UHGV virus genome: UHGV-1361924
Strand: one strand, 5' to 3'
Length of the DNA stretch: 47,390 nucleotides
From: a virus
Shown here: one piece after another, positions 4 through 47,339 of the stretch
Layout: the number at the start of each line of letters is the position of its first letter
Numbering within the stretch: the stretch's first letter is position 1
Notes under the pieces: generated by a model
Told to the model about the DNA's origin: nothing
Databases searched by the model: none
The model's input: the letters and a program-made list of their open reading frames with translations, nothing else
Translations under genes and position numbers: made by a program

Positions 4-621
4 ATGATTAATCAGGGTAGCGAGTTTGCGATGATGGCCCGCATGGCGCTGGCCGCAATGGAAAGCGAGGCAGACTGCAAGGAGAGAAAACTATTCTGTT
101 CAACCGATACAGCCAGGATGAGAAAGGTAATCTCTGCCTCTGCTGGGACCGAGGATGCGCCGCTCTATCGCCACGCGCAGCCAGCGTCGGAACGTGACCA
201 GGTACGCAGTGCGCATGCCGAGTGGTCACAGGCTACCTTTGGCAATGTCGGACCGGTTGGCCCGCTGAAGCACCTCAGCAAAGAAGCACTGGAAGCCGCT
301 GAACAGCCCGGAGACCTGTCAGAATGGGCTGATATGCAGTTCCTGCTGTGGGACGCTCAGCGCCGGGCTGGCATCACTGATGATCAGATTACCCAGGCGA
401 TGATCGATAAGCTGGCGGCAAACAAACAACGCGAATGGCCGGAGCCGAAAGACGGTGAACCGCGGTTGCACATCAAAGAGCAGCCGGCGCCGGTAGTGCC
501 GGAGGAAAAACCAATTCCAAATACACTGAGCATGTACGCCGTGGATGCAGTAGCAGCCATCGCTGAGGTGAAGGGCTGGAACGCCTGCCGCGCCGCCATG
601 CTCAACGGAGGTAAGTCATGA
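4..621 (+). CDS. MazG-like (all-alpha NTP pyrophosphohydrolase-like) protein; N-terminus probably continues from ORF at 47340..47390 if the genome is circular
   Basis: 205-aa ORF; motif SEWADMQFLLWDAQRRAGI resembles MazG/DUF550-type helices; no upstream RBS in window; frame continuous with last ORF of window. Confidence 0.4.
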   Translation: MINQGSEFAMMARMALAAMESEADCKERKLFCSTDTARMRKVISASAGTEDAPLYRHAQPASERDQVRSAHAEWSQATFGNVGPVGPLKHLSKEALEAAEQPGDLSEWADMQFLLWDAQRRAGITDDQITQAMIDKLAANKQREWPEPKDGEPRLHIKEQPAPVVPEEKPIPNTLSMYAVDAVAAIAEVKGWNACRAAMLNGGKS

Positions 622-713
622 AACCATACATCGCACGCCGCCTAATCGCCATGGCGCTGGCAATCTTCTGGCTCTCAGCAGGAGGTGCAATTGCATATTA
701 CTTCTGTTCCTGA
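618..713 (+). CDS. small hydrophobic protein (31 aa)
   Basis: ATGA start/stop overlap with upstream gene; predicted TM segment MALAIFWLSAGGAIAYYF. Confidence 0.3.
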   Translation: MKPYIARRLIAMALAIFWLSAGGAIAYYFCS

Positions 714-900
714 GCTGATTAAGCAGTACGGCACCATGAAGAATGTGCATGAGGCAACTGGCTTTGCGGAGTGTTCAATCTACCGGTATCGCTTTGATAC
801 AGGCATGAAAGACCACATTATTATAAATGGCAGGCTGTTTACGGCCCGTAAAACATCGAAGGTGGCAAATGTTGTGGTCAGACATTCATGCGGTGTGTGA
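685..900 (+). CDS. hypothetical protein (possible HTH); start uncertain (alt ATG 736)
   Basis: ORF track; protein-like composition. Confidence 0.3.
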   Translation: MQLHITSVPELIKQYGTMKNVHEATGFAECSIYRYRFDTGMKDHIIINGRLFTARKTSKVANVVVRHSCGV

Positions 901-1026
901 AGAGGCTGATTTCCTGTATGAGGAAACCGGCAGGCATCACTCCGTCATTCAGGTTGGCAGCATGATGATGGTTATTGAGCACCATCTGTCATTGCAGTAC
1001 ATGTACTCAACGGTGAGGTATCAGTA
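868..1026 (+). CDS. hypothetical small protein (52 aa)
   Basis: RBS AAGGTGG 7 nt upstream of ATG 868; TAATG coupling to next ORF. Confidence 0.4.
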
Positions 1027-1191
1027 ATGCCGCAGAAAACGAAACAGGAGATATGGCAGGCGGCCAAAGATGAGAAAGTCGACCACTTCATTGCCGCCAT
1101 TGCGAAGGCGTTTCCTGATGCGATTGAAGTGGTGCATGTGAAATCAGACAATCAGAATGTTTGGTGTTATGTGAATAGTGATGTAAAATAA
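1027..1191 (+). CDS. hypothetical small protein (54 aa)
   Basis: TAATG overlap with upstream ORF; followed by strong terminator. Confidence 0.4.
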   Translation: MPQKTKQEIWQAAKDEKVDHFIAAIAKAFPDAIEVVHVKSDNQNVWCYVNSDVK

Positions 1192-1218: not shown

Positions 1219-1247
1219 AACCCGCTTCGGCGGGTTCTTTTTTATCT
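1219..1247 (+). terminator. rho-independent terminator
   Basis: hairpin aacccgc-ttcg-gcgggtt followed by cttttttat. Confidence 0.7.
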
Positions 1248-1301
1248 ACGCCATTGTGGTAAGATATGTCCTATGTGAGTTACTCAAAGGACACATAGAA
1301 T

Positions 1302-3307: not shown

Positions 3308-3345
3308 AAAGCCCTCTAGCGAGGGCTTTCTGTTTAATTTTTGCG
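3308..3345. terminator. bidirectional rho-independent terminator
   Basis: hairpin aaagccctc-tagc-gagggcttt between convergent genes, T-run downstream. Confidence 0.65.
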
Positions 3346-3624
3346 CAGAAGCGTGGATACCGTTTCTTGTGAGGGGTGTCGGTAGTTAACCAGTTGCTCC
3401 GGCATACTCATAAATTTATTGTTTTTATCTTTGACCGTGACAAAACAGGAGTGAACACCAAATGCGCCAGTGTTGATTGTTTCGTCGTATTCGTGGAGAA
3501 GTTCTGCCATTTTTTCCTGCCACTCTTTCGGCATCTGCATCATAGCCACGCGGGGCATAACAACAAACGCTGCATAAGATAAACCGAACCACCCATGCAG
3601 GTCTTTTCGATAGTCATCTTTCAT
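3334..3624 (-). CDS. hypothetical protein
   Basis: 96-aa ORF, minus strand, downstream of minus-oriented promoter motif. Confidence 0.5.
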   Translation of the reverse strand: MKDDYRKDLHGWFGLSYAAFVVMPRVAMMQMPKEWQEKMAELLHEYDETINTGAFGVHSCFVTVKDKNNKFMSMPEQLVNYRHPSQETVSTLLRKN

Positions 3625-3670
3625 CGCCTTTACCTTTTATGATTAAGTCGCCAATCGACTTAGTGAATTT

Positions 3671-3700
3671 AATCTACATCAACAACGAATCCACGTCAAC
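3671..3700 (-). promoter_or_regulatory. sigma70-like promoter TTGACG-16-TAGATT (minus orientation) built from two copies of AATCTACRTCA motif
   Basis: plus strand aatctacatcaa...ccacgtcaac; revcomp gives TTGACG then TAGATT. Confidence 0.5.
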
Positions 3701-3712
3701 ATTTACAATAAA

Positions 3713-4003
3713 TTATTTATAAAGCCAACAATGAATCCCCGCATTGCGCATGGCGGCATAAATCACATCATCAGACACGACCGCCATTGCCACCCTGTCA
3801 GCTTCAATCTGCTGGTGCGAGGCCATGATGTCATCATAGAAAATATCGTTAGCATGCAGCCATTCATACGCATTCTTTGCCCTCATAATCAGCACATCAT
3901 GCCCGGCAGAATAGAGCGACTTAGCTAGCGCAACGTTGCCAGCGATAGCATTTCCTTCCGAATCGCGCAGCACGCCATCAAGCTCGAAAATGACACATTT
4001 CAT
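3713..4003 (-). CDS. hypothetical protein (N-terminal MKCVIFELDGVL resembles HAD-like motif)
   Basis: 96-aa ORF. Confidence 0.5.
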   Translation of the reverse strand: MKCVIFELDGVLRDSEGNAIAGNVALAKSLYSAGHDVLIMRAKNAYEWLHANDIFYDDIMASHQQIEADRVAMAVVSDDVIYAAMRNAGIHCWLYK

Positions 4004-4028: not shown

Positions 4029-4070
4029 TAATCTACGCCATGCTAGAATCTACGTCAAGGCGCATTGACA
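4029..4070. promoter_or_regulatory. divergent promoter region with two tandem AATCTACGYCA motifs (minus: TTGACG-17-TAGATT) and plus-strand TTGACA
   Basis: taatctacgcca / gaatctacgtcaa / ttgaca at 4065..4070; conserved leader ctacatcaccgggg before ATG 4092. Confidence 0.5.
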
Positions 4071-4091
4071 TAACTACATCACCGGGGCATC

Positions 4092-4331
4092 ATGAAGGCA
4101 TACTCATCTTTTTCGTGGGAGCAGAAGGAAAAAATATACTCACTCGCAAGAGCTGGTGTATCAGATGCAGCTCTGTGCGAAAGGTACGATGTGGATGAGG
4201 CTATTCTTCTGCGCATGTATGATGAAGTGTTGTGTGAGTTGCAGCGGCGCCGTGGTTATAGTGGTCTGAAGACGATTAACGATTTCTTTCGGAATGTTGA
4301 GTTAAATAACGATGAGGGTAGTGATTTATGA
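4092..4331 (+). CDS. hypothetical protein
   Basis: 79-aa ORF downstream of promoter region. Confidence 0.5.
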   Translation: MKAYSSFSWEQKEKIYSLARAGVSDAALCERYDVDEAILLRMYDEVLCELQRRRGYSGLKTINDFFRNVELNNDEGSDL

Positions 4332-8125: not shown

Positions 8126-8231
8126 ATCAATCCTCCAGCTTCATGCCCGGCACTTTTCCAGCGGCAACGAGGTCGTAAATTTCCTCGGCGACAGCCTGGC
8201 ACCATCCTGTTAACATAATTGTTTTCACCGC

Positions 8232-8978
8232 CTATTCGCGCTTCTTGTCCGCTTCTGAGCGGATAGGGCGGAATATGACGTCTCCAATGTTGTAGGAATC
8301 CTCTCTACCGCTTTCTTTCAACTTAATGACAACAAGTTGATTGCTTGTGAAAAGTATTTTGCATCGCTGCCATTCATCACAAGCCCATGAGCGCTCACAC
8401 TCACAACCAACAGGCGGTAATCCTTCGCCATTCCAAATCTGCGCAGCATCCTGACCGATGCACTCATTCAGGTCGGCTACATCATCTACTTTGTCCTGTG
8501 CTGCTTCCTGCGTATTGTGCAGGCGGTAGGCGATGATGTCGTGAGAGTTGCCATGATGCCGCCATCTAATTGCGTTACGCCTTGATGAGTACAGATCATG
8601 GCTTATTTTTGCTGGAATACCATCGTCAATTCTTCCATCTCGCCATTTGACGTCAACCAGAGTTCCTGTCGGCACCGGGCACTCACCACCACCCCAATCA
8701 ATCCATCCGTCATTTTTGGCAGCCAGCGCGGCTTCGTACTGTTCGCGGGTGATGATGGCTGTTTCGTAGTCACTTGCCAAAACATCAGCGGTGAAACAAT
8801 CAACTCTAGAACCATTAAGAAACCACCGATTAAAACTAGCATCAAATCTAGCAACGCTTGACTGGCATGTTGCCGGCATGATTTCTCTGTCGCGGTCCTG
8901 CGTGATGCAATTTGCGCGCTCCGGCCATGACCATCCGTTTTTAATAGTTTCTTCAACCAAAATATCAATCAGCTTCAT
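8232..8978 (-). CDS. hypothetical protein (248 aa), Cys/Trp-rich, function unknown
   Basis: long minus-strand ORF in accessory island. Confidence 0.55.
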   Translation of the reverse strand: MKLIDILVEETIKNGWSWPERANCITQDRDREIMPATCQSSVARFDASFNRWFLNGSRVDCFTADVLASDYETAIITREQYEAALAAKNDGWIDWGGGECPVPTGTLVDVKWRDGRIDDGIPAKISHDLYSSRRNAIRWRHHGNSHDIIAYRLHNTQEAAQDKVDDVADLNECIGQDAAQIWNGEGLPPVGCECERSWACDEWQRCKILFTSNQLVVIKLKESGREDSYNIGDVIFRPIRSEADKKRE

Positions 8979-9091
8979 TTCTTCTCTCCGTTATAAATGC
9001 TTTTCAGTTCACCCATCACATTCAGCCATGCTGCATGCTCATCCATGCCGCGCATCACCAGCTTAACGTAGCGATTGCGGGCCTTAAACAT
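8975..9091 (-). CDS. small ORF (38 aa) translationally coupled to 8232..8978
   Basis: ATGA overlap. Confidence 0.25.
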   Translation of the reverse strand: MFKARNRYVKLVMRGMDEHAAWLNVMGELKSIYNGEKK

Positions 9092-9105
9092 CAGGCGCTG
9101 GCACA

Positions 9106-9396
9106 TTACTTATTACCGAAGGTTGAGATGCAGACATCGCGCGCAATGGCAAACATTTCTTTCGGCGTTTTGTTTGTCATTTGGTATGCGGCATCAACGG
9201 TTGTTTTGTTGATTTCGTTGGCCTCTGCGCTCGCCTTGCTGCTAACCGACACCGCCAGCGCAACCTGCTTCGGTACGCCTGCATCACGTGCTTCTGCTGC
9301 TGTCTGGCCGAGTTTGCCCATTGCATCGCAAAGTTCGCCAGCTGATGCACCAAATGAAGCCATTGCGAATACTGCCACCACGATAAATTTTTTCAT
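9106..9396 (-). CDS. small secreted protein with signal peptide (cleavage after ASA)
   Basis: MKKFIVVAVFAMASFGASA-GE; 96 aa. Confidence 0.55.
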   Translation of the reverse strand: MKKFIVVAVFAMASFGASAGELCDAMGKLGQTAAEARDAGVPKQVALAVSVSSKASAEANEINKTTVDAAYQMTNKTPKEMFAIARDVCISTFGNK

Positions 9397-9439
9397 CTTG
9401 AATCCCCTGTTTTTGTGTAACTACATCATCGCCTACGAT

Positions 9440-9470
9440 TCAATCTACGTCAATAGGATTATGATAAAAT
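9440..9470. promoter_or_regulatory. promoter/operator: TCAATCTACGTCAATA + extended -10 TGATAAAAT (plus) ; TTGACG -35 on minus
   Basis: 30-bp block nearly identical to 21050..21079; conserved leader ctgcatcaccggagg before ATG 9495. Confidence 0.55.
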
Positions 9471-9494
9471 AATCTGCATCACCGGAGGTAACAA

Positions 9495-10658: not shown

Positions 10659-10799
10659 AATTAGTTCCACGGGGTTATGCATAAAGAGCCTCCATTTTGT
10701 ACCCAAACATAACTGCGTTCTGGTGCTCAACACTACCAGCAAACACCAGATAGCGACGCCCACGATTGCTGGTGATGATGTAGGCTGCTGGCTCCCGAT

Positions 10800-11033
10800 T
10801 CATAGTTTCACCATTGATGCTTTGCTTAGCTTGTCGTTGACGTGCTGGATGCACTTGATAATCTCCCCAACCTCATCATGAGTAAACAAGCTGCAATCAT
10901 ATGCAGCATTGACCTTATCACCTGCCACCTCAATAGTCAGGTGCTTGCCTTTGAATCGTGCAGCAAACCCATTACACTCAAAGTGTCCTGATTCTTGTGC
11001 TACATTATCCGCGCATGCATTGGTAACTTTCAT
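10800..11033 (-). CDS. hypothetical protein
   Basis: 77-aa ORF. Confidence 0.45.
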   Translation of the reverse strand: MKVTNACADNVAQESGHFECNGFAARFKGKHLTIEVAGDKVNAAYDCSLFTHDEVGEIIKCIQHVNDKLSKASMVKL

Positions 11034-11242
11034 TTCGATAACCTCGCCCAGCCTTTACCTTTCACGTTATAAACAAGCCCCTTCTTTTTCAGTGCCTGCA
11101 TTCTCCTGTCAAGGATTGTGATGTTTTTGACTGGTGAAATGTCCAACACCTCACGCCAAATCGACCCAATATCTACAGGCCTGATTGAGTCATCAAGACG
11201 GCGCAGAATTGCATCGTCAAGTTCATCATAAACACCCATCAC
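11030..11242 (-). CDS. hypothetical protein
   Basis: 70-aa ORF, ATGA coupling. Confidence 0.45.
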   Translation of the reverse strand: MMGVYDELDDAILRRLDDSIRPVDIGSIWREVLDISPVKNITILDRRMQALKKKGLVYNVKGKGWARLSK

Positions 11243-11760
11243 TTTACCTCCCCATTCAGTTCATTAACAATTAATGTTGCATAGCCAGCAATGTCTTTCC
11301 AGCTATCGTCGTATGTCGGGTCGCCATTCAGGATTCGACCAATTTTATGCTGAATCATGTCGAGCGCCTCCTTCTGGCTCGCCGTCAGGTTGCTCCAGCC
11401 GTCAACGTCGCGCATGGTGTCTTTCAGTGATTGCATGATATCTGCGCCGTCTTTGAATTTGCCATAGCGATTTCCGCGCTCGGTGATGAGGGCTTCTGTT
11501 GGGTCTGTGCATTCTTTGGTGGCTTGCCCCTCAATATCCACAATGTACCGCTTGGCCATGCATAAGAATTGACTGCGGTATACACCCTCACCCCAAATTC
11601 CAGAGCCGCCATATACGCCCCAATATCTGGCGCCGGGAGTTGGGGAGATTTCCACGAAATATTTTCGCTTGTTGTTGTCAATGACAAGCATTGTTGCTTC
11701 TTCAGGAGCGCCATAGAAATGACCCTCATTTCCTTTCGTGTATTTGTATTTCCTCATCAC
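11239..11760 (-). CDS. conserved phage protein; C-terminal all-alpha domain with MazG-like motif (KIGRILNGDPTYDDSWKDIAGYA)
   Basis: 173 aa; motif-based only. Confidence 0.5.
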   Translation of the reverse strand: MMRKYKYTKGNEGHFYGAPEEATMLVIDNNKRKYFVEISPTPGARYWGVYGGSGIWGEGVYRSQFLCMAKRYIVDIEGQATKECTDPTEALITERGNRYGKFKDGADIMQSLKDTMRDVDGWSNLTASQKEALDMIQHKIGRILNGDPTYDDSWKDIAGYATLIVNELNGEVK

Positions 11761-11957
11761 TCCACCCTCAACGTAACTTTGTTTTTCTCATCCACACTGA
11801 AGTGTTTACGCACAAACGCATACATTTCTTCAGCGCTCCATTCCCGCATTGCTACATAGCAGTGCGCGTAATATCTGACATCTCGCAGGCTTAACGGCTG
11901 GCGCTTAGCGATAATCTCAGTCAGTGCTTCCATTGGTTCTTTGCGTTGTCTCGCCAT
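11757..11957 (-). CDS. hypothetical protein
   Basis: 66 aa; first gene of minus operon. Confidence 0.45.
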   Translation of the reverse strand: MARQRKEPMEALTEIIAKRQPLSLRDVRYYAHCYVAMREWSAEEMYAFVRKHFSVDEKNKVTLRVE

Positions 11958-11980
11958 TTGTCGCTCTCCTGTGAAAATAG

Positions 11981-12027
11981 TATTGACTAATCTACATCAT
12001 CTAGTCAATACTTAATGACGTAGATTA
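11981..12027. promoter_or_regulatory. divergent promoter/operator with nested inverted repeats (tattgacta/tagtcaata and aatctacatca/tgacgtagatt)
   Basis: seen directly; lies between divergent operons. Confidence 0.55.
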
Positions 12028-12054
12028 TATCACATTAGAAATCGGTGGTGTGGA

Positions 12055-12769: not shown

Positions 12770-13001
12770 TGAGGGGATTCTAGAATGCCCCTTATGCCAG
12801 GCTACTATCTCGCATGCAGAGCAAGCATATTTTGAGCTATCACCAGTTGGGTGGGTGGTTGAGTGCTACGAGTGCGGATGCACAACAGGAAAGCATGCAA
12901 CAAAAAACGGCGCCATTGAGTCATGGAACACCAGAAACGGCCACCTCTATACCGCTGATGACTACAAACAGGATGCAATGGAGCGCGCAAATGGACTTTA
13001 A
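12750..13001 (+). CDS. Lar-family restriction alleviation protein (zinc ribbon)
   Basis: CPLC...CYECGC and AIESWNTR signature. Confidence 0.65.
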   Translation: MKPMMNDEGILECPLCQATISHAEQAYFELSPVGWVVECYECGCTTGKHATKNGAIESWNTRNGHLYTADDYKQDAMERANGL

Positions 13002-13461
13002 AACGCAAATACTCACGGTGATAGAGCGCTGCGGCGGCGCAACCAATGCGATGATACGAAAGCAGACTGGCATGACAAACCGAGCCAGCGTTACCGGCTA
13101 TCTGATTGAGCTGGAGGGTATGGGATTTATTATTAAAGAGGAAAGCGTCAGCTATGGCAGGCGCTGCTTTAAGTATTTCCTCAATCCCGATAATACTGCG
13201 CTTGACCTGGCAATTCAGACGTACCTTGAGGCGAATCCTGGGCGCAAGAGCAAGCAGATAGCAGAGGCTGTCGGCGTCAACTACACCATCCTCAAGGCGC
13301 GCATGCGCTATCTGGCAAGCATTGGTCAGGTTGACCGTGAAATGCTTCCAGGCGGTGCATGGAAATATTACTGGCAGGAGATCATCCCGTTTGGTATGAG
13401 CCGTGACAGGATGATGTTTGAAAAGCTGCTTGCCGGGGCGCGTCAGTCATGTGGGCGATAA
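12991..13461 (+). CDS. DNA-binding protein with two winged-helix-like domains
   Basis: RBS GGAG 7 nt before ATG 12991; wH-like segments; ORF-track 5' extension rejected. Confidence 0.5.
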   Translation: MDFKTQILTVIERCGGATNAMIRKQTGMTNRASVTGYLIELEGMGFIIKEESVSYGRRCFKYFLNPDNTALDLAIQTYLEANPGRKSKQIAEAVGVNYTILKARMRYLASIGQVDREMLPGGAWKYYWQEIIPFGMSRDRMMFEKLLAGARQSCGR

Positions 13462-19352: not shown

Positions 19353-19378
19353 TAAAGCCCCGTGAGGGGCTTATTTGC
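19353..19378. terminator. bidirectional terminator
   Basis: aagcccc-gtga-ggggctt. Confidence 0.6.
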
Positions 19379-19571
19379 GATTCTTAATATAATGCTGCTT
19401 TGCAATATACAGCATCTCATCAAACGCTTTTCCGGTTACACTACGGCACTGTCGGTAATGCTGCAAAGCAGCCTCAATGGCTGAATTGTCAATGCCAGGC
19501 AGTTTTTCGCGCAGGTTTTTCTCTATGAATTGTTCGGGATTCATTACCAACTCTCCACCACGTTTGCGCAT
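19371..19571 (-). CDS. hypothetical protein
   Basis: 66 aa. Confidence 0.4.
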   Translation of the reverse strand: MRKRGGELVMNPEQFIEKNLREKLPGIDNSAIEAALQHYRQCRSVTGKAFDEMLYIAKQHYIKNRK

Positions 19572-19741
19572 TCATCATAAAATAAGAAATGCCTTGTTTT
19601 TTCTTCGTAACGCTTCATTTCAAACGCGATTATGTCCTCCTGATAGTGAATTTTCTCCACCTGGCGAGCCACTCCGTCTCGCATTAGGATGTGATCGCCT
19701 TCTTTTATGTTTTTTGCAGCAGTGCCAATTGTAATCATCAC
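19544..19741 (-). CDS. hypothetical protein
   Basis: 65 aa. Confidence 0.4.
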   Translation of the reverse strand: MMITIGTAAKNIKEGDHILMRDGVARQVEKIHYQEDIIAFEMKRYEEKTRHFLFYDECANVVESW

Positions 19742-20553
19742 AGCTTCTCCAGAATCGCCAGCACTTCACTCAACTCCGCAGAAGGAAGGCGCAAAAATTC
19801 TTCTGTCTCCTGTGCCACATGGCCCTCAGCGACAACCATGTGATCTGCTTCTTTCAGCAACTGAATCAGGCGGTCAATCGGCTTAACTTTTTTGGCTTTG
19901 AGCGTTTTCGCCGTCACCTTATCCTTGCCTTGCGCTTTCGCTTCCTCAACGGCAGCATCAATAACGTTAACGGCATCATCGCCATGCTCGCGCGCCACTG
20001 CAACGGCGTTGGCATAGCTGATTTGTCCTGCATTGATGCGCTGCTTGATGGCATCAGGTACATCACCAAGTGACAGGTGCATCTGCACATCAGAAACAGA
20101 GCGGCCGACCTTCTTGGCGATTTCTTCATTCGTCCATCCAAAACCTTTCAGGCGCACATAAGCCTTTGCACGCTCAAGCGGGTCAAGCTGCTTGCCCTGA
20201 CTGGATGACACCATGAAGGCGATTTTATCCGCTTCATCGCCGGTGAAGTCTTTGCACTCAATGCGCGCAATTGGTACGCCGCGCTCAATGGCACGCAATG
20301 CGCCAAGGTAGCGATGCTGACCATCAAGAATCTTGATGCGCTTACCATCGGCATCAGGAATAACAGTTAATGCCGGGATTGGCTGCCCCGATTCCCAGCA
20401 CTGCGCGAAGTATTCGACGTGCGCAGGGTCGGCGTCGCGGATGTTGTATCCAGGCTCAAGGTAAAGCTGGTCCACAGGAACCTGATAACCCTTGTTAACC
20501 ACGATTCCGCCGCGAGTCTCTTTGTCTGCATAAATTTTATTGAGAGATGTCAT
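19738..20553 (-). CDS. ParB N-terminal-domain (ParB/Srx nuclease-like) protein
   Basis: KILDGQHRYLGALRA motif; C-terminal K/A-rich region. Confidence 0.7.
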   Translation of the reverse strand: MTSLNKIYADKETRGGIVVNKGYQVPVDQLYLEPGYNIRDADPAHVEYFAQCWESGQPIPALTVIPDADGKRIKILDGQHRYLGALRAIERGVPIARIECKDFTGDEADKIAFMVSSSQGKQLDPLERAKAYVRLKGFGWTNEEIAKKVGRSVSDVQMHLSLGDVPDAIKQRINAGQISYANAVAVAREHGDDAVNVIDAAVEEAKAQGKDKVTAKTLKAKKVKPIDRLIQLLKEADHMVVAEGHVAQETEEFLRLPSAELSEVLAILEKL

Positions 20554-20562
20554 TTATTCCTC

Positions 20563-20677
20563 ACTTTGATAAACATATTGCGCTTGCAATTGCAAAGCCG
20601 ATAACGATTAACACAAGTTTTACTTTAAACTTACCCCATGCTTTCAGGTCTTGCTGACGGATTTCGTGGCGAATCAT
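20563..20677 (-). CDS. small membrane peptide (38 aa)
   Basis: ATGA coupling to upstream gene; C-terminal TM. Confidence 0.3.
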
Positions 20678-21012
20678 TTGGTTTCTCCGAGCGCTTTGGC
20701 GATTGCGGCACGCGCTTTGTCATATGGGCACATGCATGTAAAACCATTGTGGCCGCATGACTTATTACCACCTGTTTGCTCAGCCATTAATAATTGAAGT
20801 GCTTCCAGCAATTCAGGTGCGGCTGCTATCAGATTGGCATTAGCTACTTGAATTTCTATCTCCGGATCAAACTCAACATAAGCCACTTCAATTATCATCC
20901 CAAAACTTTGGTCATCAAGACCACTGACAGGGCCGATGCCCCTTCCAGTCTTGCTTGCCACCCACGGCCCCGGCGTACCTTTAAAACCTTTCATCTTCAT
21001 CACCTCTAACAT
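20674..21012 (-). CDS. hypothetical protein with conserved C-terminal NANLIAAAPELLEAL motif
   Basis: 112 aa; first gene of minus operon. Confidence 0.5.
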   Translation of the reverse strand: MLEVMKMKGFKGTPGPWVASKTGRGIGPVSGLDDQSFGMIIEVAYVEFDPEIEIQVANANLIAAAPELLEALQLLMAEQTGGNKSCGHNGFTCMCPYDKARAAIAKALGETK

Positions 21013-21028
21013 TTATTGTTGTTTCTAC

Positions 21029-21079
21029 GTCATCACTATAGCGACACCCTCAATCTACGTCAACACTTTATGATAAAAT
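21029..21079. promoter_or_regulatory. divergent promoters: minus TTGACG-17-TATAGT ; plus motif TCAATCTACGTCAACA + extended -10 TGATAAAAT
   Basis: seen directly; 30-bp block shared with 9440..9470. Confidence 0.6.
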
Positions 21080-23246: not shown

Positions 23247-23323
23247 TGGTTCCCGCGACAGGATTCGAACCTGTAATCATCCGATTATGAGTCGGGTGCT
23301 TTAACCAGTTAAGCTAAACGGGA
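23247..23323 (-). tRNA. tRNA-Met (anticodon CAT; could be initiator/elongator or Ile2-type)
   Basis: revcomp gives T-loop GGTTCGAATCC, D-stem GCTT/AAGC, anticodon loop CTCATAA, encoded CCA; two stem mismatches (7-66, 27-43). Confidence 0.6.
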
Positions 23324-23326
23324 ATT

Positions 23327-23403
23327 TGGTGCACCATACTGGATTCGAACCAGTTACCGATTGCTTAGAAGGCAATTGCTCTATCCTGATGAGCTAATGG
23401 TGC
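23327..23403 (-). tRNA. tRNA-Arg (anticodon TCT)
   Basis: perfect cloverleaf: acceptor GCACCAT/ATGGTGC, D-stem GCTC/GAGC, AC-stem ATTGC/GCAAT loop CTTCTAA, T-arm ACTGG-TTCGAAT-CCAGT, CCA encoded. Confidence 0.8.
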
Positions 23404-23877
23404 GTTTATTGTTGTGGTGGCAGCACACCTAGCCGCACGTTTTCAGTAAAGTTACATCAGGTGATCAGTCTGACGCTGTTAGGGCGTGAGATTTATGCCC
23501 CGCATTCACCACAACGGAAAGAGCACTGCCTAGATACTAGGTCCATTTCCTAACGGAAAATTCAATGCTCTTACCTGTTGTGTGTTGTGACTACTAACCC
23601 AGGAACCCATTACCGCGCTTTGGCTCGACCTTTTTACAGGTTGGTGAATGTATTTCATCCGCTTGCATTCATATGTTTTGCTTTCGTCACAACGGAAATG
23701 GCGCTACACTTTGCTTCGTACTCTGTGGCAATCATGTCCACTATGTAAACCTGCAACGCCATTTCCTGTTATGTGCTGGCGTCTCACATTAACAGTAAAC
23801 CGAATGCCACCTGTTAATGTCCCTGCATTCTGCGACCAGCAAAGTAAATCTACACCACCATTCCGCGCCTGTCAACA

Positions 23878-24677: not shown

Positions 24678-24705
24678 GAAAACCCCCGAAAGGGGGTTTA
24701 TAGTT
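24678..24705. terminator. bidirectional terminator
   Basis: aaaccccc-gaa-agggggttt. Confidence 0.7.
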
Positions 24706-24886
24706 TATGTGGAACAAGTTTATATTGTTTGGTCTTTTTGCATTTATCACACGTTACGAATCGCCGGGTAAATGCATATCCATTCTGTCCAGCCATTGGG
24801 GCGCCGCAGGCAGCCAGGTTATCATTGCGCCCACTCTCAACATGAATTTTTTTACCTGCATACGGGTGTCCATTACTCATCATCAT
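24698..24886 (-). CDS. small zinc-ribbon-like protein
   Basis: start at MMMSNG; CxxC...CDKC. Confidence 0.4.
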   Translation of the reverse strand: MMMSNGHPYAGKKIHVESGRNDNLAACGAPMAGQNGYAFTRRFVTCDKCKKTKQYKLVPHKL

Positions 24887-25148
24887 CCTCCTCACTAATC
24901 GCAGTATCGAGTTGACGGCGAAGCATACACAGCGCGCCATGCGGCATAAACTGTGAAACCATTCCGTCGAATATCTGGCGGTTTAATTTATTATCAATGC
25001 GCGGCCTGATTGCAGACCAGCATGACCGTATAGCGCGATTAACCGGACGGCGGTCGAGCATTGCGAGTCGCGCAGCTAGCTCAATAGTCACGAGTGCATC
25101 AAGATACTGCTCACAGGCGTAGCGGCCTTCATCATCCATTATTATCAT
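24873..25148 (-). CDS. hypothetical acidic protein
   Basis: 91 aa. Confidence 0.4.
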   Translation of the reverse strand: MIIMDDEGRYACEQYLDALVTIELAARLAMLDRRPVNRAIRSCWSAIRPRIDNKLNRQIFDGMVSQFMPHGALCMLRRQLDTAISEEDDDE

Positions 25149-25259
25149 CCTGCATCATGAGAAATACTATCATGGCGGCGCGGAGTGGGTTTTTATGGTT
25201 CATGCGATGCTTAACATATGCAGGCTTGAATTGCGCTCGCCATGTTTTCTCGTGCCTGT

Positions 25260-25487
25260 TCACCACAATACATTCCAGAGAAATGCCATTATTAACAATA
25301 ATCGGCCATGCATCTGCTGGGTTGTTGCATGGGTCAAATTTACACTTAAATTCCCGTTATCAAAAAAGAAAAAACCATCGTTATTAATATGCGCAAGCCC
25401 ACCATTTTGGCAAAAATCATTACTAAGCCAAAAGAATACTTTTTGCGCAACTTCTATATCACTCATCTTGCTGTAATCAGTGCTCAT
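25260..25487 (-). CDS. hypothetical protein
   Basis: 75 aa; crosses T-homopolymer. Confidence 0.35.
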   Translation of the reverse strand: MSTDYSKMSDIEVAQKVFFWLSNDFCQNGGLAHINNDGFFFFDNGNLSVNLTHATTQQMHGRLLLIMAFLWNVLW

Positions 25488-25618
25488 CTCTTATCCTCCA
25501 CCACTACGCCAATCTTAGCCAGCAACAAAATCGCCTTTACGCGGGCCTCTTCATAGGTGTAACCCTGATCGATGTAAAGGTCGATGTAAAATCTCAAATC
25601 AGAATCAGTCTCGTTCAT
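25486..25618 (-). CDS. small ORF (43 aa), first gene of minus moron operon
   Basis: ATGA coupling. Confidence 0.3.
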
Positions 25619-25647: not shown

Positions 25648-25687
25648 CAATCTACGTCAGTCTTGCTCTCCCTGTCAATGGTATAAT
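25648..25687. promoter_or_regulatory. promoter: TCAATCTACGTCAG motif + extended -10 TGgTATAAT (plus); TGACG -35-like on minus
   Basis: seen directly. Confidence 0.5.
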
Positions 25688-29347: not shown

Positions 29348-29375
29348 AAAAAGCCCCTTATGGGGCTTCTTTCAT
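29347..29375. terminator. bidirectional terminator
   Basis: aaaagcccc-ttat-ggggctt. Confidence 0.65.
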
Positions 29376-30437
29376 TATCTCGCTCATTAATTCAGGTGAG
29401 TATCTTAACCATTCTGTTGCTCCATCAAATCCTGCCAGTCCTGCGCTTTCGTATTTCTTATGATAATACTTTTCAATGCGCATGGCTTCGACTCCGGTTG
29501 TTTTTATCTTTGCTATCAGGTTGAAGTCGAATGGTGTTCCTGATTTAAGTTGCGATAATCTTTTTCTGATTTTATTAGTTATTCCAACCTTAATAATTCC
29601 ATCGGCCATCAAGAAATACACATATCCGGTCAATGATGGATTATATCCACCTTTTGAACAAGAAGGGCAGCCACTACCTTTCATATGTGTATTTGGTGAT
29701 TGCATGAATATCCCATGAATAGGGCAGACTATTTTTACCTTACTCATTACATTTCTATAATCAACAAGATGATAGTCATATCTTGAATCGTGAATTTTAT
29801 TTGATCTGATGATGAACTCACCTACCTTTAAAGTTCTTCCTTCAACTCTAGACTGAATGCCACATGACGGACACCCCTTGCCGTTTACATGTGATATGGC
29901 TCTCTGAGTAAATAACCCGTGTATGTTGCATTTAATATTAACATCGGCATCCATGCCATTAAAATTAGCAGCAGAGTAATCATATCTCAATCCATGTCTA
30001 GAAACAGCCCTAGAAATAAAACTATCAATAGAATGCGTTTTCTTTTCGGATATCCTTTTATATCCGCACAATCTACACCCTAAACCTCCAAGGTGTTTAT
30101 AAGGAAGCTGATTGAAATCCCCATGGGTTGCGCATGTTATTGTTATTTTCGTGTGTGAGTTTATATATTCAACTTTAGAATAATCATAAGAGTCACCATG
30201 TTTTGCAATCGCATCAGCCACAAACTCACGCGTTGTTTTCCTCTTACCTCCAGAGCATGATGGGCACCCGGACCCATTCAAATGAGCACCTGGAGTTTGC
30301 TCAAAATCACCGTGATAATGGCAGGTTATAATTATCTTTATCTTTGAGCCAGTGTACACGGATTTATCATAAATGTACTTATCGCCATGGATGGCTTTAG
30401 CTTTTGCTATAAACTCTTCTGTGGTGAGCTTGCGCAT
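29358..30437 (-). CDS. T5orf172-domain (GIY-YIG-like) protein with four tandem CHC2-like zinc-ribbon repeats; putative homing endonuclease/DNA-binding protein
   Basis: repeat consensus YDY..V.Y.....KI.I.C..HG.F.Q.P..H..G.GCP.C x4; C-terminal GYVYFLMADGIIKVGITNKIRKRLSQL; start at ATG 30437 with GAGG RBS (ORF track start 30500 lacks RBS). Confidence 0.6.
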   Translation of the reverse strand: MRKLTTEEFIAKAKAIHGDKYIYDKSVYTGSKIKIIITCHYHGDFEQTPGAHLNGSGCPSCSGGKRKTTREFVADAIAKHGDSYDYSKVEYINSHTKITITCATHGDFNQLPYKHLGGLGCRLCGYKRISEKKTHSIDSFISRAVSRHGLRYDYSAANFNGMDADVNIKCNIHGLFTQRAISHVNGKGCPSCGIQSRVEGRTLKVGEFIIRSNKIHDSRYDYHLVDYRNVMSKVKIVCPIHGIFMQSPNTHMKGSGCPSCSKGGYNPSLTGYVYFLMADGIIKVGITNKIRKRLSQLKSGTPFDFNLIAKIKTTGVEAMRIEKYYHKKYESAGLAGFDGATEWLRYSPELMSEIMKEAP

Positions 30438-30539
30438 TTGGAATCCTCGGTTAAAGGTGGTTTGAAGTGATGCAGCAGGCGATAACCAATCGCTTTTCAT
30501 CTGGCCGGACTAGCTGCACTTATGATTGTACCATCAACG

Positions 30540-36891: not shown

Positions 36892-37350
36892 TCAAAAACT
36901 ATCAATTTGTATGCTCTTATCATGAGGCTTTTTCAAATGGTAATACGTTGCTCTCCAGTCATTGAATGCCATCATGGCTGCTTCCCATCCAAGGCATACG
37001 CACACAAAGCATTCTGCTTTTTTACTCGCCTCAAGATACTCAAGCTGACCATCCTCCCATTCGCAAAGTGTATGGTCTCTCCTCTTCATCTCAATGACAA
37101 GTGAGGGGTTCCCAGGGATTATTATATCTGAAGCTCCTTTGTTTAAAGCTCCTTTCTTTTTTAGGTTATTAACTTCGTGCGCTTTTCTCTTCCCCTCGTT
37201 TGGGACGTGAAGAACAAGGCGCCCAAAACTGTCAGGATACATTTTCTTCAACTGATTTATGAATGTTACAAGTTCAGCATCTTCTACAGGACATTTTTTA
37301 TTGCGGTAGTCCTTTTCACCATAAATTTTTAACCATTCTGGAAAAATCAT
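36892..37350 (-). CDS. VRR-NUC domain nuclease (PD-(D/E)xK)
   Basis: GASDIIIP...VIEMKRRDH motif. Confidence 0.7.
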   Translation of the reverse strand: MIFPEWLKIYGEKDYRNKKCPVEDAELVTFINQLKKMYPDSFGRLVLHVPNEGKRKAHEVNNLKKKGALNKGASDIIIPGNPSLVIEMKRRDHTLCEWEDGQLEYLEASKKAECFVCVCLGWEAAMMAFNDWRATYYHLKKPHDKSIQIDSF

Positions 37351-39209: not shown

Positions 39210-39221
39210 AATGTCCTCTCG

Positions 39222-39258
39222 AATAAAAAGGGCCACGAATGGCCCTTGGTTACTTTTT
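39222..39258 (-). terminator. intra-operon terminator/attenuator between SSB-like gene and helicase
   Basis: agggcca-ttcg-tggccct + ttttatt on minus strand. Confidence 0.55.
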
Positions 39259-39262
39259 GAAA

Positions 39263-39799
39263 TCAAAATGGTACATCATCGTCGAAGTCAACCGGCGGCT
39301 CTTCATCCTGCGGCTTTGCCGTTTGCTTTTGTTGCTTTGCTGCTGGAGCTGCTTTAGTCTGCTGGCGACCAAATACCCCGGCAACGTAGTTGCCTGACTT
39401 CTGCTTATCGTCAGACTGCCAGACGCGAAGCAGGAGGATCATCGGGCGGTTAGCCAGAGCGCTTGCGATAGCGAAATCAGTAGGCTCTTTCCCTGAAGCC
39501 ATCAGTTTGCCACCAGCGTTTGCATCAATTGCTGCCAGCATGCTGATGGCGTTATCGCGCTGCTTGTCCTTCTGGCTGAAAACCTTCAGCTTCTGGAAGA
39601 TGATACGATTTTTGTAATCGCCATCCAGGATGCGCCACTTCAGGTTAAAGAAGCGCTCACCTTCCCATTCATCGTCCTTGCACTCCTCAACAGCAGCCAG
39701 CACGCGGGTGCCGTCAGGAATAACTTCGAAAGCACCACCAGCCTCAAATTCAGACTTTGACTCAACTTCTTTACCGTCAGAAAGATTCCAGAAACCCAT
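39263..39799 (-). CDS. non-canonical SSB-like ssDNA-binding protein with SSB-type acidic tail (DFDDDVPF)
   Basis: C-terminal PPVDFDDDVPF; neighbours Sak4/Gp157; N-terminal region unlike E. coli SSB OB fold. Confidence 0.55.
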   Translation of the reverse strand: MGFWNLSDGKEVESKSEFEAGGAFEVIPDGTRVLAAVEECKDDEWEGERFFNLKWRILDGDYKNRIIFQKLKVFSQKDKQRDNAISMLAAIDANAGGKLMASGKEPTDFAIASALANRPMILLLRVWQSDDKQKSGNYVAGVFGRQQTKAAPAAKQQKQTAKPQDEEPPVDFDDDVPF

Positions 39800-39815
39800 T
39801 TTTATGTCCTCTCGA

Positions 39816-44664: not shown

Positions 44665-44693
44665 TTGACGTAGATTGAGCGCCATCGTATAGT
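44665..44693 (+). promoter_or_regulatory. sigma70-like promoter TTGACG-17-TATAGT (motif TTGACGTAGATTGA)
   Basis: seen directly; 30 nt upstream of first early gene. Confidence 0.6.
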
Positions 44694-44724: not shown

Positions 44725-44940
44725 ATGAAAAAAGGCGATGTGGTGGAGTGCGTTGACGCAAAGGGAAGTGAATATCTTACTAATGGAAAATCGTATGAAG
44801 TTGTAGCGGGAAAAGGCGACAATGGAAGATATGGATACATCAGCAGCGATATGGGATTTGAAATAGTAGACGACAATGGGTATTCAGCATTTTGCTTATA
44901 TCCTGAATGTGAACACGCTGAATGGAGAATCAAAGAATGA
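44725..44940 (+). CDS. hypothetical protein
   Basis: 71 aa, RBS AGAGGTGA. Confidence 0.5.
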   Translation: MKKGDVVECVDAKGSEYLTNGKSYEVVAGKGDNGRYGYISSDMGFEIVDDNGYSAFCLYPECEHAEWRIKE

Positions 44941-45122
44941 CCAAAGCAATCTACAAGCGCACTCAACTGGAACCAGAAATGGGCACAGTGAAAGCGCAAA
45001 ACTTTATGATGGCGCAGGCAATGCATGCATACAGCAACGGCAAGCGAGTCTGTCGCGTTTTTAGTGGCGAAGGTAAGCACAGAACACTTGAGCAGGTTAT
45101 CGTGTCGTCTGGCGCAAACTAA
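44937..45122 (+). CDS. hypothetical protein
   Basis: ATGA coupling. Confidence 0.4.
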   Translation: MTKAIYKRTQLEPEMGTVKAQNFMMAQAMHAYSNGKRVCRVFSGEGKHRTLEQVIVSSGAN

Positions 45123-45137
45123 ACCGGTTTAGCAACG

Positions 45138-45416
45138 ATGAATAAGCTATTTGCAGTGGTGTTGCTCGTCATTTCCAACGCAACAAGTGCCGAAACCATA
45201 TGGGTAACGAAATACGCGCTTACCCGTGGCATTCAGAAGTACGAAAGCGCACAGTTGTTTGCTGATGGTCAGGTTGCCGTAGTTGGCGATGTTTACTTTA
45301 AGCGTGGTGAGTACTGGCTTGATGAACAACAGGCAAAAGACCATGCAGAAACGTTGCGTCAGCGCAGAGTATCAGCACTGATGCGTGAACTTGAAAGATT
45401 GCAGGCTGTTAAGTGA
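45138..45416 (+). CDS. small secreted protein with signal peptide
   Basis: MNKLFAVVLLVISNATSA-ETIW. Confidence 0.5.
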   Translation: MNKLFAVVLLVISNATSAETIWVTKYALTRGIQKYESAQLFADGQVAVVGDVYFKRGEYWLDEQQAKDHAETLRQRRVSALMRELERLQAVK

Positions 45417-45423
45417 GGGTGTG

Positions 45424-45882
45424 ATGATTACTGTCAATGAAGTGCAGCAAATGATTGAGAAACTTGAAGCCGCTGGCGAGATTTCCATGAAGGAAGAAAA
45501 GTATCTGGCGCTGGCGAAAGCGTTTAAGCAGCTGGCTGCGGAGAATGTGGGGCTTAAGGCTGGCGTTGCAGAAGAAATTGAAGTTATCAATCGCGGCGGT
45601 CAGATGTACTGCGTGAAGGACGGCATGTCCATAAATCCGATATATGCGCGCGGATGGAATGACCACCGGGCTAATGTGACGGCAGTACAAACCCCCGCCA
45701 CCGATCTCATCGTAGCCGGGATTAAGGCTGATGGGGTGGAGGAAATGGCGTCAACTTACCGCGGTTTTGCCAATAAGGATGGCTGCTCTGTAAACATGAA
45801 ATGCAGCTACAACCTCACCGCAGAACTAGCCGAAAGCTACGCGGCCTATATTCGCCACCAGATGCGCGAGGGGGCCAAATGA
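45424..45882 (+). CDS. hypothetical protein
   Basis: start at ATG 45424. Confidence 0.45.
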   Translation: MITVNEVQQMIEKLEAAGEISMKEEKYLALAKAFKQLAAENVGLKAGVAEEIEVINRGGQMYCVKDGMSINPIYARGWNDHRANVTAVQTPATDLIVAGIKADGVEEMASTYRGFANKDGCSVNMKCSYNLTAELAESYAAYIRHQMREGAK

Positions 45883-46154
45883 GCAAGTCATTCATCGTAA
45901 TTATCCGGCGCGCCTGGTGTAACGAAGGCGGGCACGGTATCGAATATTCATCTGACCTTATTCACTACGAGACCCGCAATGGAGCCATATCACACGGTTT
46001 TCGGACTGTAGATAGCGACGATTTCAACATCGGAGTTATCGAGGGCGGCAATCTGGTTTCGTTTGACTGGATGGATAAGCCGGTTGGTGAAAGCGAAGAC
46101 ACGCTGGCACAGATTGCCGAGCTAATCGGTCTGGAGGCACAGCATGACAACTGA
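45879..46154 (+). CDS. hypothetical protein
   Basis: ATGA coupling. Confidence 0.45.
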   Translation: MSKSFIVIIRRAWCNEGGHGIEYSSDLIHYETRNGAISHGFRTVDSDDFNIGVIEGGNLVSFDWMDKPVGESEDTLAQIAELIGLEAQHDN

Positions 46155-46324
46155 TATCACCGAACTCCCGCCAAACATTGGCTATGGCGTCCGTCGGCGC
46201 TGGCACGCTCAACGTGGGCAACGAAATGGTCGAGGTGGGAGATATCATCGCCTTCCGTCACGACACAATTTAAGGAAATGGATAGGCAAGCGTTTGATTG
46301 CAGAAGTTTTAGCGGAGGCCAAAC

Positions 46325-46837
46325 ATGCAAAATGATATCACCGAACTGGCGCATAGCCTGAAAGCGGCGGCAGAGAAAGCAATCGCAGAAGAAGGTTCGA
46401 CTTGGTGGAACGAAGAGCAACTGGCGAGCGACTATGGTCTTGCGCTGCATAGGACGGACGCTAAGTTCATCGCGTTAGCTAGTCACGAGAACGTGCTGGC
46501 TCTGGTAGAGGCGCTGGAGAAGGCGCAGCGTGCCAGCGGCTACCTTCGTGAGCAGTCTGCTGAATGGGAGCGTAAGGCAATCAGTAACTTTGAAGACTGT
46601 GCGGAAATGTCGGCGCGGGTTGAAGAGCTAGAATCACAGCGGAAACTGGCTTTCGCCGCCAGTAATCGCTGGGCGGATAAATTCAGAGAAGCAGAGAAGC
46701 GCATCGCCGAGCTGGAGTCCCGCACCGTGAAGCTGCCAAATCAAACTGAGTTTGATGATCCGCTATCAGCGTATGAGGCTATCCAGAAGTGCAAAGAGGC
46801 GCTGACCGCCGCTGGCATCAAGGTGGAGGCTGAGTGA
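46325..46837 (+). CDS. coiled-coil protein (possibly Ead/Ea22-like)
   Basis: 170 aa, ELES repeats; family assignment from memory only. Confidence 0.45.
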   Translation: MQNDITELAHSLKAAAEKAIAEEGSTWWNEEQLASDYGLALHRTDAKFIALASHENVLALVEALEKAQRASGYLREQSAEWERKAISNFEDCAEMSARVEELESQRKLAFAASNRWADKFREAEKRIAELESRTVKLPNQTEFDDPLSAYEAIQKCKEALTAAGIKVEAE

Positions 46838-47130
46838 TGTGGAGAGGAATCGATCGCACCAGAAGCCAGATGATACTGACCGAGTATCGCTATGACCCAA
46901 AAGCCAAAGACTCCAAATCCGTTTACCTGGTGCGGCATAACAGCCGCATTCATCAGACTGTTCTGGAGCAGCATTTGACAATAGAGCGCGATAGTTTCGG
47001 TCGTTTCATACCGACTATCGAACTGAAAGACTTTCCGGAAGGACTTAGCGACCGCGAGTCGATGCTCAAACTCGCCGACTGGCTGCACCGCTTAGGCGTG
47101 GCGATTGAAGATAACTGGAGTCAACCATGA
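46834..47130 (+). CDS. hypothetical protein
   Basis: GTGATG coupling. Confidence 0.45.
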   Translation: MMWRGIDRTRSQMILTEYRYDPKAKDSKSVYLVRHNSRIHQTVLEQHLTIERDSFGRFIPTIELKDFPEGLSDRESMLKLADWLHRLGVAIEDNWSQP

Positions 47131-47339
47131 CCAATAACACCGAAACGAAAGGTCGCTATATCTACCACTTCTGTGGCGCACTGAAAGGTCAGAACGCCAC
47201 GCTTTCTGGTGTCGCTCAATTGACGTTCAGAATCACGAGCCAGCAGGATTTGGAGAGATTCAAAGCGGCCGTCAGTTGTGAGGGAAAAGAAATCGATGCA
47301 GTTTTTTCTCTGAGCTATCTGGGGCGGGAGCACGAATAA
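47127..47339 (+). CDS. hypothetical protein
   Basis: 70 aa. Confidence 0.45.
   Translation: MTNNTETKGRYIYHFCGALKGQNATLSGVAQLTFRITSQQDLERFKAAVSCEGKEIDAVFSLSYLGREHE

Follow-up and report, generated by a model that had tools for sequence, protein, structure and literature searches.

An 11-base word in the promoter regions of a Roufvirus-like Klebsiella phage and its relatives: a sigma70 promoter hexamer and probable operator

What is the task of a short word that recurs between the genes of a phage and hardly ever within them? The question is raised by the virus genome UHGV-1361924, whose 47,390 nucleotides (the window, meaning the whole stretch of DNA analysed) carry the 11-base word AATCTACRYCA near position 21,052 and at many other intergenic points. 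By comparison with other phages the window is a Roufvirus-like Klebsiella siphophage, a group with genomes of 46-48 kb. An original prediction had taken the word as the mark of a phage-specific early promoter class, of an operator, or of both. On sequence evidence it is a real, clade-conserved and strongly non-random regulatory word that occurs in nearly every promoter region of this phage and its relatives. It is an ordinary kind of element, previously undescribed for this phage group, and on balance it probably combines a sigma70 promoter hexamer with an operator for a phage-encoded, probably monomeric, putative regulator.

The recurrence of the motif is far beyond chance. When one mismatch is allowed, AATCTACGTCA is matched 12 times on the two strands of the window against 0.53 expected, and none of 100 shuffles reaches 12. 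Coding and non-coding tallies were based on gene annotation carried over by tblastn from the related Klebsiella phage VLCpiS13f; by that annotation only 7.5% of the window is non-coding, and all seven copies of the core TCTACGTCA lie there (p about 1e-8). The motif is thus not equally frequent inside genes, and its predicted confinement to intergenic DNA holds. The form TCTACRYCA has 13 copies, of which a single one is genic (27994, in the tape-measure gene). In an unbiased screen of k-mers in non-coding versus total DNA the motif words rank at the top, alongside one homopolymer. Exact copies of AATCTACGTCA begin at 4047, 9442, 12016 (minus strand), 21052, 25649 and 44666 (minus strand), and intergenic copies with one mismatch at 3671, 3688, 4030 and 11989. 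The two coding matches at this threshold (18321 and 34831) have a broken TCTAC core and look like chance. Positions listed earlier were right to within 1-2 nt (1241 becomes 1243, 3690 becomes 3688, 25650 becomes 25649 and 44667 becomes 44666), and further copies can be added at 21022 (TTTCTACGTCA), 4071 and 9418 (both TAACTACATCA) and 18264 (AATCAACATCA).

A sequence logo of 19 non-coding copies from three diverged genomes defines the 11-mer as AATCTAC-R-Y-CA. All 11 positions are informative and the flanks are not; the two central positions accept transitions only, and all four R/Y combinations are found among copies that serve as a -10. As read from the sequence, the site is asymmetric, with no dyad symmetry past ACGT. 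Neighbouring copies are separated by irregular distances (10, 17, 24-25, 27 and 29-30 bp), and this phage, which looks virulent, has about 17 sites in all, distributed among about 10 promoter regions.

Part of the function can be read from the opposite strand. As TGRYGTAGATT, the motif is predicted to give the host sigma70 polymerase either a -35 (TTGACG) or a -10 (TAGATT), and a promoter function is well supported. The window holds 48 TTGACG hexamers; a hexamer with A at its second and T at its sixth position stands exactly 17 bp away from all five that are borne by the motif (3699, 4058, 9453, 21063 and 44665) and from none of the other 43. The partner hexamers are TAGATT (twice), GATGAT (once) and TATAGT (twice). 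The base that turns TGACG into TTGACG lies outside the conserved motif, and it is T in all five of these copies, which argues that sigma70 truly reads them. TAGATT acts as the predicted -10 in the tandem pairs at 3671 and 4030, and also in two promoters that the original prediction did not have, TTGACA-17-TAGATT (23875..23847) and TTGACA-18-TAGATT (25678..25649); the architecture of the last site recurs in phage Skate and in the distant relative L073. The sigma70 pattern of a -35 near TTGACA, a spacer of 17±1 bp and TAnnnT is thus found in five TTGACG and two TTGACA promoters. A complete promoter would arise from two copies at a distance of 17 bp, or from a single copy combined with an ordinary TTGACA or TATAGT. 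Across the clade, 109 of 405 unique contexts (about 77 genomes and loci) are placed as a -35 and 104 as a -10, compared with 17 and 19 when flanks are shuffled; this is about 6-fold, although the contexts are phylogenetically related and the counts descriptive. Promoters formed in this way aim at small accessory-gene operons, the operon of a ParB-like protein, the small genes after 44665 and transfer RNA (tRNA) genes.

The plus-strand genes have promoters of another kind. Most structural and lysis operons are preceded, 24-43 nt before the first gene, by an extended -10 (TGnTAnnnT) with no recognisable -35. On the plus strand these elements begin at 1257, 4041, 5504, 9462, 14384, 18254, 21071 (here 146 nt upstream of its gene), 23878, 25679, 30540 and 34355, and on the minus strand they occupy 30533..30525 and 12032..12024. 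Most of them overlap, or stand back to back with, a motif-borne promoter of the other strand; those at 5504, 14384, 30540 and 34355 have no motif nearby. The sites in the window are as follows.

1243..1253, plus strand: copy TATCTACGCCA, in the spacer immediately upstream of the extended -10 TGGTAAGAT (1257-1265); small-terminase-like gene at 1302.
3671..3698, minus strand: tandem pair AATCTACATCA (3671-3681) and AATCCACGTCA (3688-3698), predicted to form TTGACG (3699..3694)-17-TAGATT (3676..3671) for the open reading frame (ORF) 3624..3334.
4030..4081, both strands: three copies (4030-4040, 4047-4057 and a degenerate one at 4071-4081).
4058..4030, minus strand: predicted promoter TTGACG (4058..4053)-17-TAGATT (4035..4030), serving 4003..3713.
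4041-4049, plus strand: extended -10 TGCTAGAAT, fused to the copy at 4047 and serving gene 4092.
9418..9481: three copies, degenerate (9418-9428), exact (9442-9452) and AATCTGCATCA (9471-9481).
9453..9425, minus strand: predicted promoter TTGACG (9453..9448)-17-GATGAT (9430..9425).
9462-9470, plus strand: extended -10 TGATAAAAT, serving endolysin, holin and spanin, with copy 9471 on the predicted start site.
11979..12032: switch-like region with TTGACT (11983-88), AATCTACATCA (11989-99), AATACT (12007-12) and inverted TGACGTAGATT (12016-26), serving 11957..10675 on the minus strand and 12055 onward on the plus strand.
12032..12024, minus strand: extended -10 TGATATAAT, fused to the copy at 12016.
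18254-62, plus strand: extended -10 TGTTATAAT, then degenerate copy AATCAACATCA (18264-74) on the predicted start site of gene 18292.
21022-32: copy A, TTTCTACGTCA, on the predicted minus-strand start site.
21022..21079: region of copy B, AATCTACGTCA (21052-62), with predicted minus-strand -35 TTGACG (21063..21058) and -10 TATAGT (21040..21035).
21071-79, plus strand: extended -10 TGATAAAAT, divergent to the 21063 promoter.
21012..19371, minus strand: operon behind the 21063 promoter, including the ParB-like gene.
23847-57: copy AATCTACACCA, the predicted -10 of the minus-strand promoter TTGACA (23875..23870)-17-TAGATT (23852..23847), which points at tRNA-Arg and tRNA-Met (23403..23247).
23878-86, plus strand: extended -10 TGATATAAT, back to back with the 23875 promoter and serving the major tail gene.
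25649-59: copy AATCTACGTCA, the predicted -10 of the minus-strand promoter TTGACA (25678..25673)-18-TAGATT (25654..25649), serving 25618..24698.
25679-87, plus strand: extended -10 TGGTATAAT, back to back with the 25678 promoter and serving 25716 and the tape-measure gene.
44665..44693, plus strand: predicted promoter TTGACG (44665-70; motif at 44666-76, minus strand)-17-TATAGT (44688-93), serving small genes 44725..47339 and continuing into 4..1191.
44694-44724, plus strand: leader of the 44665 promoter, AACAACAA..AGAGGTGATGAAGAATG, paralogous to the leader behind 21035.

The geometry predicted earlier for TTGACG-17-TATAGT at 21063..21035 and 44665..44693 is confirmed, as is that at 3699..3671 and 4058..4030, where the spacer, put at 16 or 17, is 17 bp. 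Service of divergent units is likewise borne out, with motif promoters standing back to back with extended -10 promoters. Other details need revision. Read forward, the motif was said to precede extended -10 elements; there is no fixed geometry, since the gaps to the TG are 3, 9, 20 and 19-21 nt, and at 23847 and 25649 it forms instead the -10 of an opposite-strand promoter (TTGACA-17/18-TAGATT). The 30-bp block said to be shared between 9440..9470 and 21050..21079 does contain identical sub-blocks (TCAATCTACGTCAA and TATGATAAAAT), but these are split by 5-6 variable bases. The "leader" seen at two loci exists, as CATCACCGGGGC from 4077 and CATCACCGGAGG from 9477; its CATCA is the end of a degenerate motif copy, and a ribosome-binding site follows. 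Membership in core promoters stands, as -35 TTGACG or as -10 TAGATT, the latter noted in the original prediction for the tandem pairs only. Restriction to an early class is not supported, since the very same copies also adjoin, or overlap with, extended -10 promoters that serve the lysis, terminase, connector and tail operons. Because of this the motif marks promoter regions generally. The two kinds of promoter hint at a shift from -35-dependent to -35-independent transcription.

Conservation extends well beyond the window. The word occupies orthologous intergenic positions in VLCpiS13f, Skate and Bas78 (relatives that infect Klebsiella, Salmonella and E. coli), and all 15 copies in Salmonella phage SB28 are intergenic. 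In the distant group L073/L074, whose tail proteins are 40-69% identical, both the word and the same promoter architectures are kept. The only 10-mers present at least three times in each of four complete genomes are derived from the motif. It is absent from the examined unrelated phages whose only link to the group is a ParB-like gene of 44% identity, and a 14-mer scan of IMG/VR returned mostly chance matches. The literature searched, which left the phage E1 genome paper outside, neither describes the word nor analyses promoters of the clade.

The pattern within each region is more informative. The 21-kb region, compared over 57 unique orthologs, conserves its leader, copy A, ACTATA, TCAATCTACGTCAAC (invariant) and ATGnTAAAAT, and the other spacer bases are free. 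Copies that act as a -10 still keep the TGRYG half, which lies in the spacer, and copies that act as a -35 still keep the TAGATT half. Orientation can change without loss of position. In front of the endolysin gene, phages of the Klebsiella clade have their second copy in direct orientation at 24 bp, and those of the Salmonella clade have theirs inverted at 29 bp, right after the -10. In the 12-kb region the downstream copy is flipped in L247.

About half of the copies are neither a -35 nor a -10. At 21022 and 12016 the copy covers a predicted start site and reads in the direction of transcription. Others lie on such sites in the opposite sense, either after the -10, as in TGATAAAAT followed by AATCTGCATCA at 9462 and TGTTATAAT followed by t and AATCAACATCA at 18254, or fused to it, as in TGCTAGAAT with CTACGTCA at 4041 and TGATATAAT with CTACGTCA at 12032 (minus strand). 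Relatives show similar junctions of a -10 and then a copy (TAGTAT with AATCTACATCA; TACAATga with ATCTACATCA). Copies can also come right after a -35, for example TTGACT with AATCTACATCA at 11983 and TTGACA with TAACTACATCA at 4065 (in L307, TTGACA with AATCTACATCA). Each of the recurring copies shares bases with a predicted -35, -10, spacer or start site, as an operator should, and the logo, the footprints and the flips of orientation at a kept position show conservation past the needs of a promoter. For the copies that lie, in either orientation, within spacers or over predicted start sites, the operator role suggested in the original prediction is the best reading. A trans-acting factor is suggested because the motif is conserved outside polymerase contacts, has copies that are not hexamers, turns over with its position kept and is irregularly spaced; the asymmetry of the site and the irregular spacing suggest binding of a monomer type, or flexible binding.

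If a sigma70 hexamer and an operator are indeed combined in one word, the whole 11-mer would be the recognition site of a putative phage-encoded, sequence-specific DNA-binding protein. Since every copy overlaps a core promoter element, occupancy would shut the motif-oriented promoters as the protein accumulates, and the accessory operons would in this way be timed or kept under negative feedback. The overlapping extended -10 promoters could be repressed as well, freed from promoter competition, or activated. A bolder form of this idea is possible though doubtful. It would have one portable 11-bp operator, bearing both a -35 and a -10, that is copied, flipped and re-spaced to make, move or rewire self-repressible promoters, and one small monomeric helix-turn-helix (HTH) or winged-helix protein that times the accessory programme and the switch to -35-less late promoters, with the ParB-like protein dispensable.

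Several proteins could be the binder. In the following, each gene product (gp) is named by its coordinates.

11757..11957, minus strand: candidate regulator of 66 amino acids with a predicted winged-helix topology.
4092..4331, plus strand: candidate regulator of 79 amino acids, the first gene after a motif-bearing promoter in all complete genomes.
19738..20553, minus strand: ParB/Spo0J/KorB-family HTH protein, 80% identical in Skate and Bas78.

The best candidates are possibly gp 11757-11957 (winged-helix-like) and gp 4092-4331 (HTH-like), because they are kept in all motif-bearing genomes checked and are encoded right behind motif-bearing promoters; further possibilities are gp 19371-19571, which has a weak HTH_50 match, and the DUF7540 protein gp 44922-45122. 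All four are present in every motif-bearing genome checked, a set that for the first two does not cover the L073 group. The genes of gp 11757 and gp 4092 each come first behind a two-copy promoter, which resembles the usual layout of an autoregulated repressor and would fit such a role. The best AlphaFold model of gp 11757-11957 has a predicted local distance difference test (pLDDT) score of 85, the other four 61-67, and its Foldseek matches are winged-helix DNA-binding domains at non-significant E-values of at least 0.26. For gp 4092-4331 a three-helix HTH-like core is confidently predicted, with a weak Pfam match to HTH_Tnp_1 and non-significant Foldseek E-values above 1; a profile search for its remote homologues reached the Klebsiella clade alone. 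The ParB-like protein matches KorB structures (8qa8 and 1r71). A MarR-like double winged-helix protein (12991-13461) was rejected as the binder, being absent in Bas78 and in 2 of 51 motif-carrying loci. A methylation site was also discarded: two methyltransferases of L001 have no homologue in the window, where the motif is nonetheless kept.

The reading as promoter hexamer plus operator has points that weigh against it. No data on transcription start sites, expression timing or binding were found in the literature searched for any clade member. The binder is represented by candidates, with Foldseek E-values of at least 0.26 for both main ones and, for gp 11757, low confidence in all but one of five AlphaFold models. 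The sigma70 hexamers fully account for about half of the copies, overlapping opposite-strand promoters could be the source of some conservation, and the relatedness of the 405 contexts means that their counts are not independent. Another account, of some, if limited, probability, treats the 11-mer as a part of strong sigma70 promoters that was copied around the genome, a paralogous piece with no dedicated binder; that its conservation comes from polymerase contacts and overlapping divergent promoters is part of this account and equally unlikely. The ideal 17-bp geometry speaks for it, as do the placement of about half of the clade copies as -35 or -10 hexamers and the tight overlap of promoters on both strands, with extended -10 elements fused to the motif at 4041 and 12032. 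It does not explain why -35 copies conserve TAGATT, and -10 copies TGRYG, in the half for which no sigma70 contact is known, or why the remaining half of the copies are found, in either orientation, at predicted start sites or in spacers. Nor does it account for flips of orientation at a kept position, or for a word that stays intact between phages with about 50% identical tail proteins while the adjoining spacer bases drift. An activator box is a less probable answer: a phage protein on the motif would make up for the -35 that the extended -10 promoters of late operons lack, in a MotA-like or class II-like manner. Late-type promoters do lack a -35, the site is asymmetric like a MotA box, and at 9442 and 21052 it covers about -34 to -24 of the plus-strand promoter, with its centre near -30. 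However, its distance to the extended -10 varies (3, 9 or 19-21 nt), the promoters at 5504, 14384, 30540 and 34355 do without it, and the copies at 23847 and 25649 are better explained as the -10 of an opposite promoter. Extended -10 promoters need no -35, and about 30 small proteins, searched against Pfam and PHROGs with no particular aim at these families, gave no MotA or AsiA.

The ParB/KorB-like protein (19738-20553) is an obvious suspect, either as a KorB-like global repressor or as a partition or condensation protein that binds or loads at the motif. It is a genuine ParB/Spo0J-family HTH protein, its 80% identity reaches Skate and Bas78, and no double site is better conserved than the one in front of its operon. 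Every motif-bearing group has the same HTH segment, save for one G-to-A substitution in L074, and the unrelated motif-less group has an altered one; the motif is the sole repeated word common to the clade. Such a role is nevertheless quite improbable. The gene is missing at 1 of 51 loci, that of Salmonella phage SB28, where the complete genome retains only a 44-amino-acid C-terminal remnant, and the same remnant is found at the ParB locus of CHRF_10034 (of which a 26-kb part was examined). The two phages were isolated independently, in Canada and Bangladesh, and differ by 6.6% in nucleotides. SB28 retains its 15 copies, all intergenic, and at ten well-aligned sites the two differ in 2 of 110 motif bases, compared with about 5.6% in the flanks. 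Because SB28 has lost the gene and keeps intergenic copies that look constrained, the ParB-like protein appears unnecessary for upkeep of the motif. The site is also non-palindromic, unlike parS or a KorB operator, and its copies are irregularly spaced. About as improbable, or slightly more so, is a host transcription factor or nucleoid protein common to Klebsiella, Salmonella and E. coli. Such a factor would suit a motif that is kept in phages of different enterobacterial hosts and outlives loss of the ParB-like gene, but the motif is clade-specific and absent in the examined unrelated phages of the same hosts. AATCTACRYCA is not known to resemble the site of any enterobacterial factor.

Some observations concern the ParB-like gene itself. 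The same deletion has left the 44-amino-acid remnant in SB28 (L309, 14585-14719) and in CHRF_10034 (L310, 20617-20748), both members of Macdonaldcampvirus, and since two independent isolates carry it the protein is apparently dispensable for a plaque-forming phage. Two of the unrelated phages with the 44%-identical ParB-like gene, L079 (4104-4266 and 6408-6795) and L081 (6022-6107 and 7509-7848), have a repeated intergenic near-palindrome, AATACYTGCGGTATT, which may be a separate promoter or operator word.

The rest of the genome provides the setting. The closest kin of the window are VLCpiS13f and the phages MK54, BUCT541/610, KlebP_265 and 'Aeromonas' pIS4-A, at about 90% nucleotide identity; remoter kin are Salmonella and E. 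coli phages of Skatevirus and Macdonaldcampvirus (Skate, E1, SB28 and Bas78). The plus strand encodes structural and lysis genes, which are broken by short minus-strand accessory clusters (3334-4003, 8130-9396, 10675-11957, 19371-21012, 24698-25618 and 29358-30500). A replication module lies at 36.9-44.2 kb, and small plus-strand genes run in series from 44725. The module (36892-44172, with a helicase at 37347-39266 and a primase/polymerase-like gene at 41465-43798) is only about 25% identical to that of the phage's closest relatives, which indicates that it was swapped within an otherwise about 90% identical genome. Beyond it, 44173-44724 is a non-coding region of 552 nt with six GACTTTAGA-like 9-mers in both orientations (44282, 44353, 44438, 44485, 44514 and 44583) and two poly-C runs (44374-44383 and 44417-44427); it is absent in the compared genomes VLCpiS13f, Skate and Bas78. 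Adjoining this phage's own divergent replication module, it is a candidate for an origin with iterons, or for a packaging region. The GACTTTAGA repeats were rejected as a ParB target, being specific to the window.

Other features deserve mention. The leaders at 21013-21034 and 44694-44724 are paralogous (AACAACAA...AGAGGTGATGAAGA(A)TG), and the 21-kb leader is nearly invariant in 57 orthologs, which exceeds the need of a ribosome-binding site. Between the 23875..23847 promoter and tRNA-Arg(TCT)/tRNA-Met(CAT) there are about 440 nt (23404-23846) with no ORF and no Rfam match, which may form a long leader or hold a small RNA that is not annotated. At 8130-8978 (minus strand) a stop codon breaks the ortholog of VLCpiS13f gp46, leaving a shorter gene (8232-8978) or a pseudogene. 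In the whole window Rfam finds only two tRNAs. An RNA element was rejected as an identity for the motif, with no Rfam match and with copies in both orientations and also upstream of predicted start sites.

Known systems resemble this one in part. In phage P2 the C repressor binds direct, non-palindromic half-sites that flank the -10 of the Pe promoter. The likeness is in short asymmetric paired sites over a -35, -10 or start at divergent control regions, with candidate regulator genes directly behind such promoters. In contrast to the P2 type, which has a single immunity region, the sites here number about 17 in a virulent-looking phage, spacing and orientation are irregular, the operator itself encodes the -35 and -10, and the regulator is a candidate. 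KorB of the IncP plasmid RK2 is a global regulator with 12 operators (OB) at or near promoters, each a 13-bp palindrome. Here too one word stands at many promoters of a small replicon with a ParB/KorB-family gene behind one of them, but the motif is asymmetric and is kept where the ParB-like gene is lost, so that neither the 13-16 bp palindrome of parS or OB nor a dependence on ParB/KorB is found. The MotA boxes of T4 lie at middle promoters. They are likewise a phage-specific asymmetric word of 9-11 bp, and some of the copies here are centred near -30 upstream of a good -10; the differences are a near-consensus sigma70 -35 within the motif, the lack of MotA/AsiA in the non-targeted searches, and positions that range from -46 to +10 in both orientations where a MotA box would have a fixed place. 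A T7-like promoter was rejected: neither the gene map nor the annotation of the relatives contains a phage RNA polymerase gene, and the copies face either way with respect to the genes. Bidirectional or overlapping bacterial promoters also share a few tens of bp back to back, and the late-type promoters are of the extended -10 kind (TGnTAnnnT with no -35), but both concepts leave the conservation of the 11-mer outside the hexamers unexplained. The motif is a conventional kind of element; the identity of its regulator and the sign of regulation are conjecture.

Phages of Roufvirus, Skatevirus and Macdonaldcampvirus are being isolated in large numbers, for Klebsiella therapy, in Salmonella Typhi surveillance and in the BASEL collection, and in the literature searched no transcription map or regulator was found for these genera. 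The motif yields a testable promoter and operon map for the clade. It is also a defined bait for the candidate master regulator, and offers a compact, possibly self-repressing promoter design for engineered phages.

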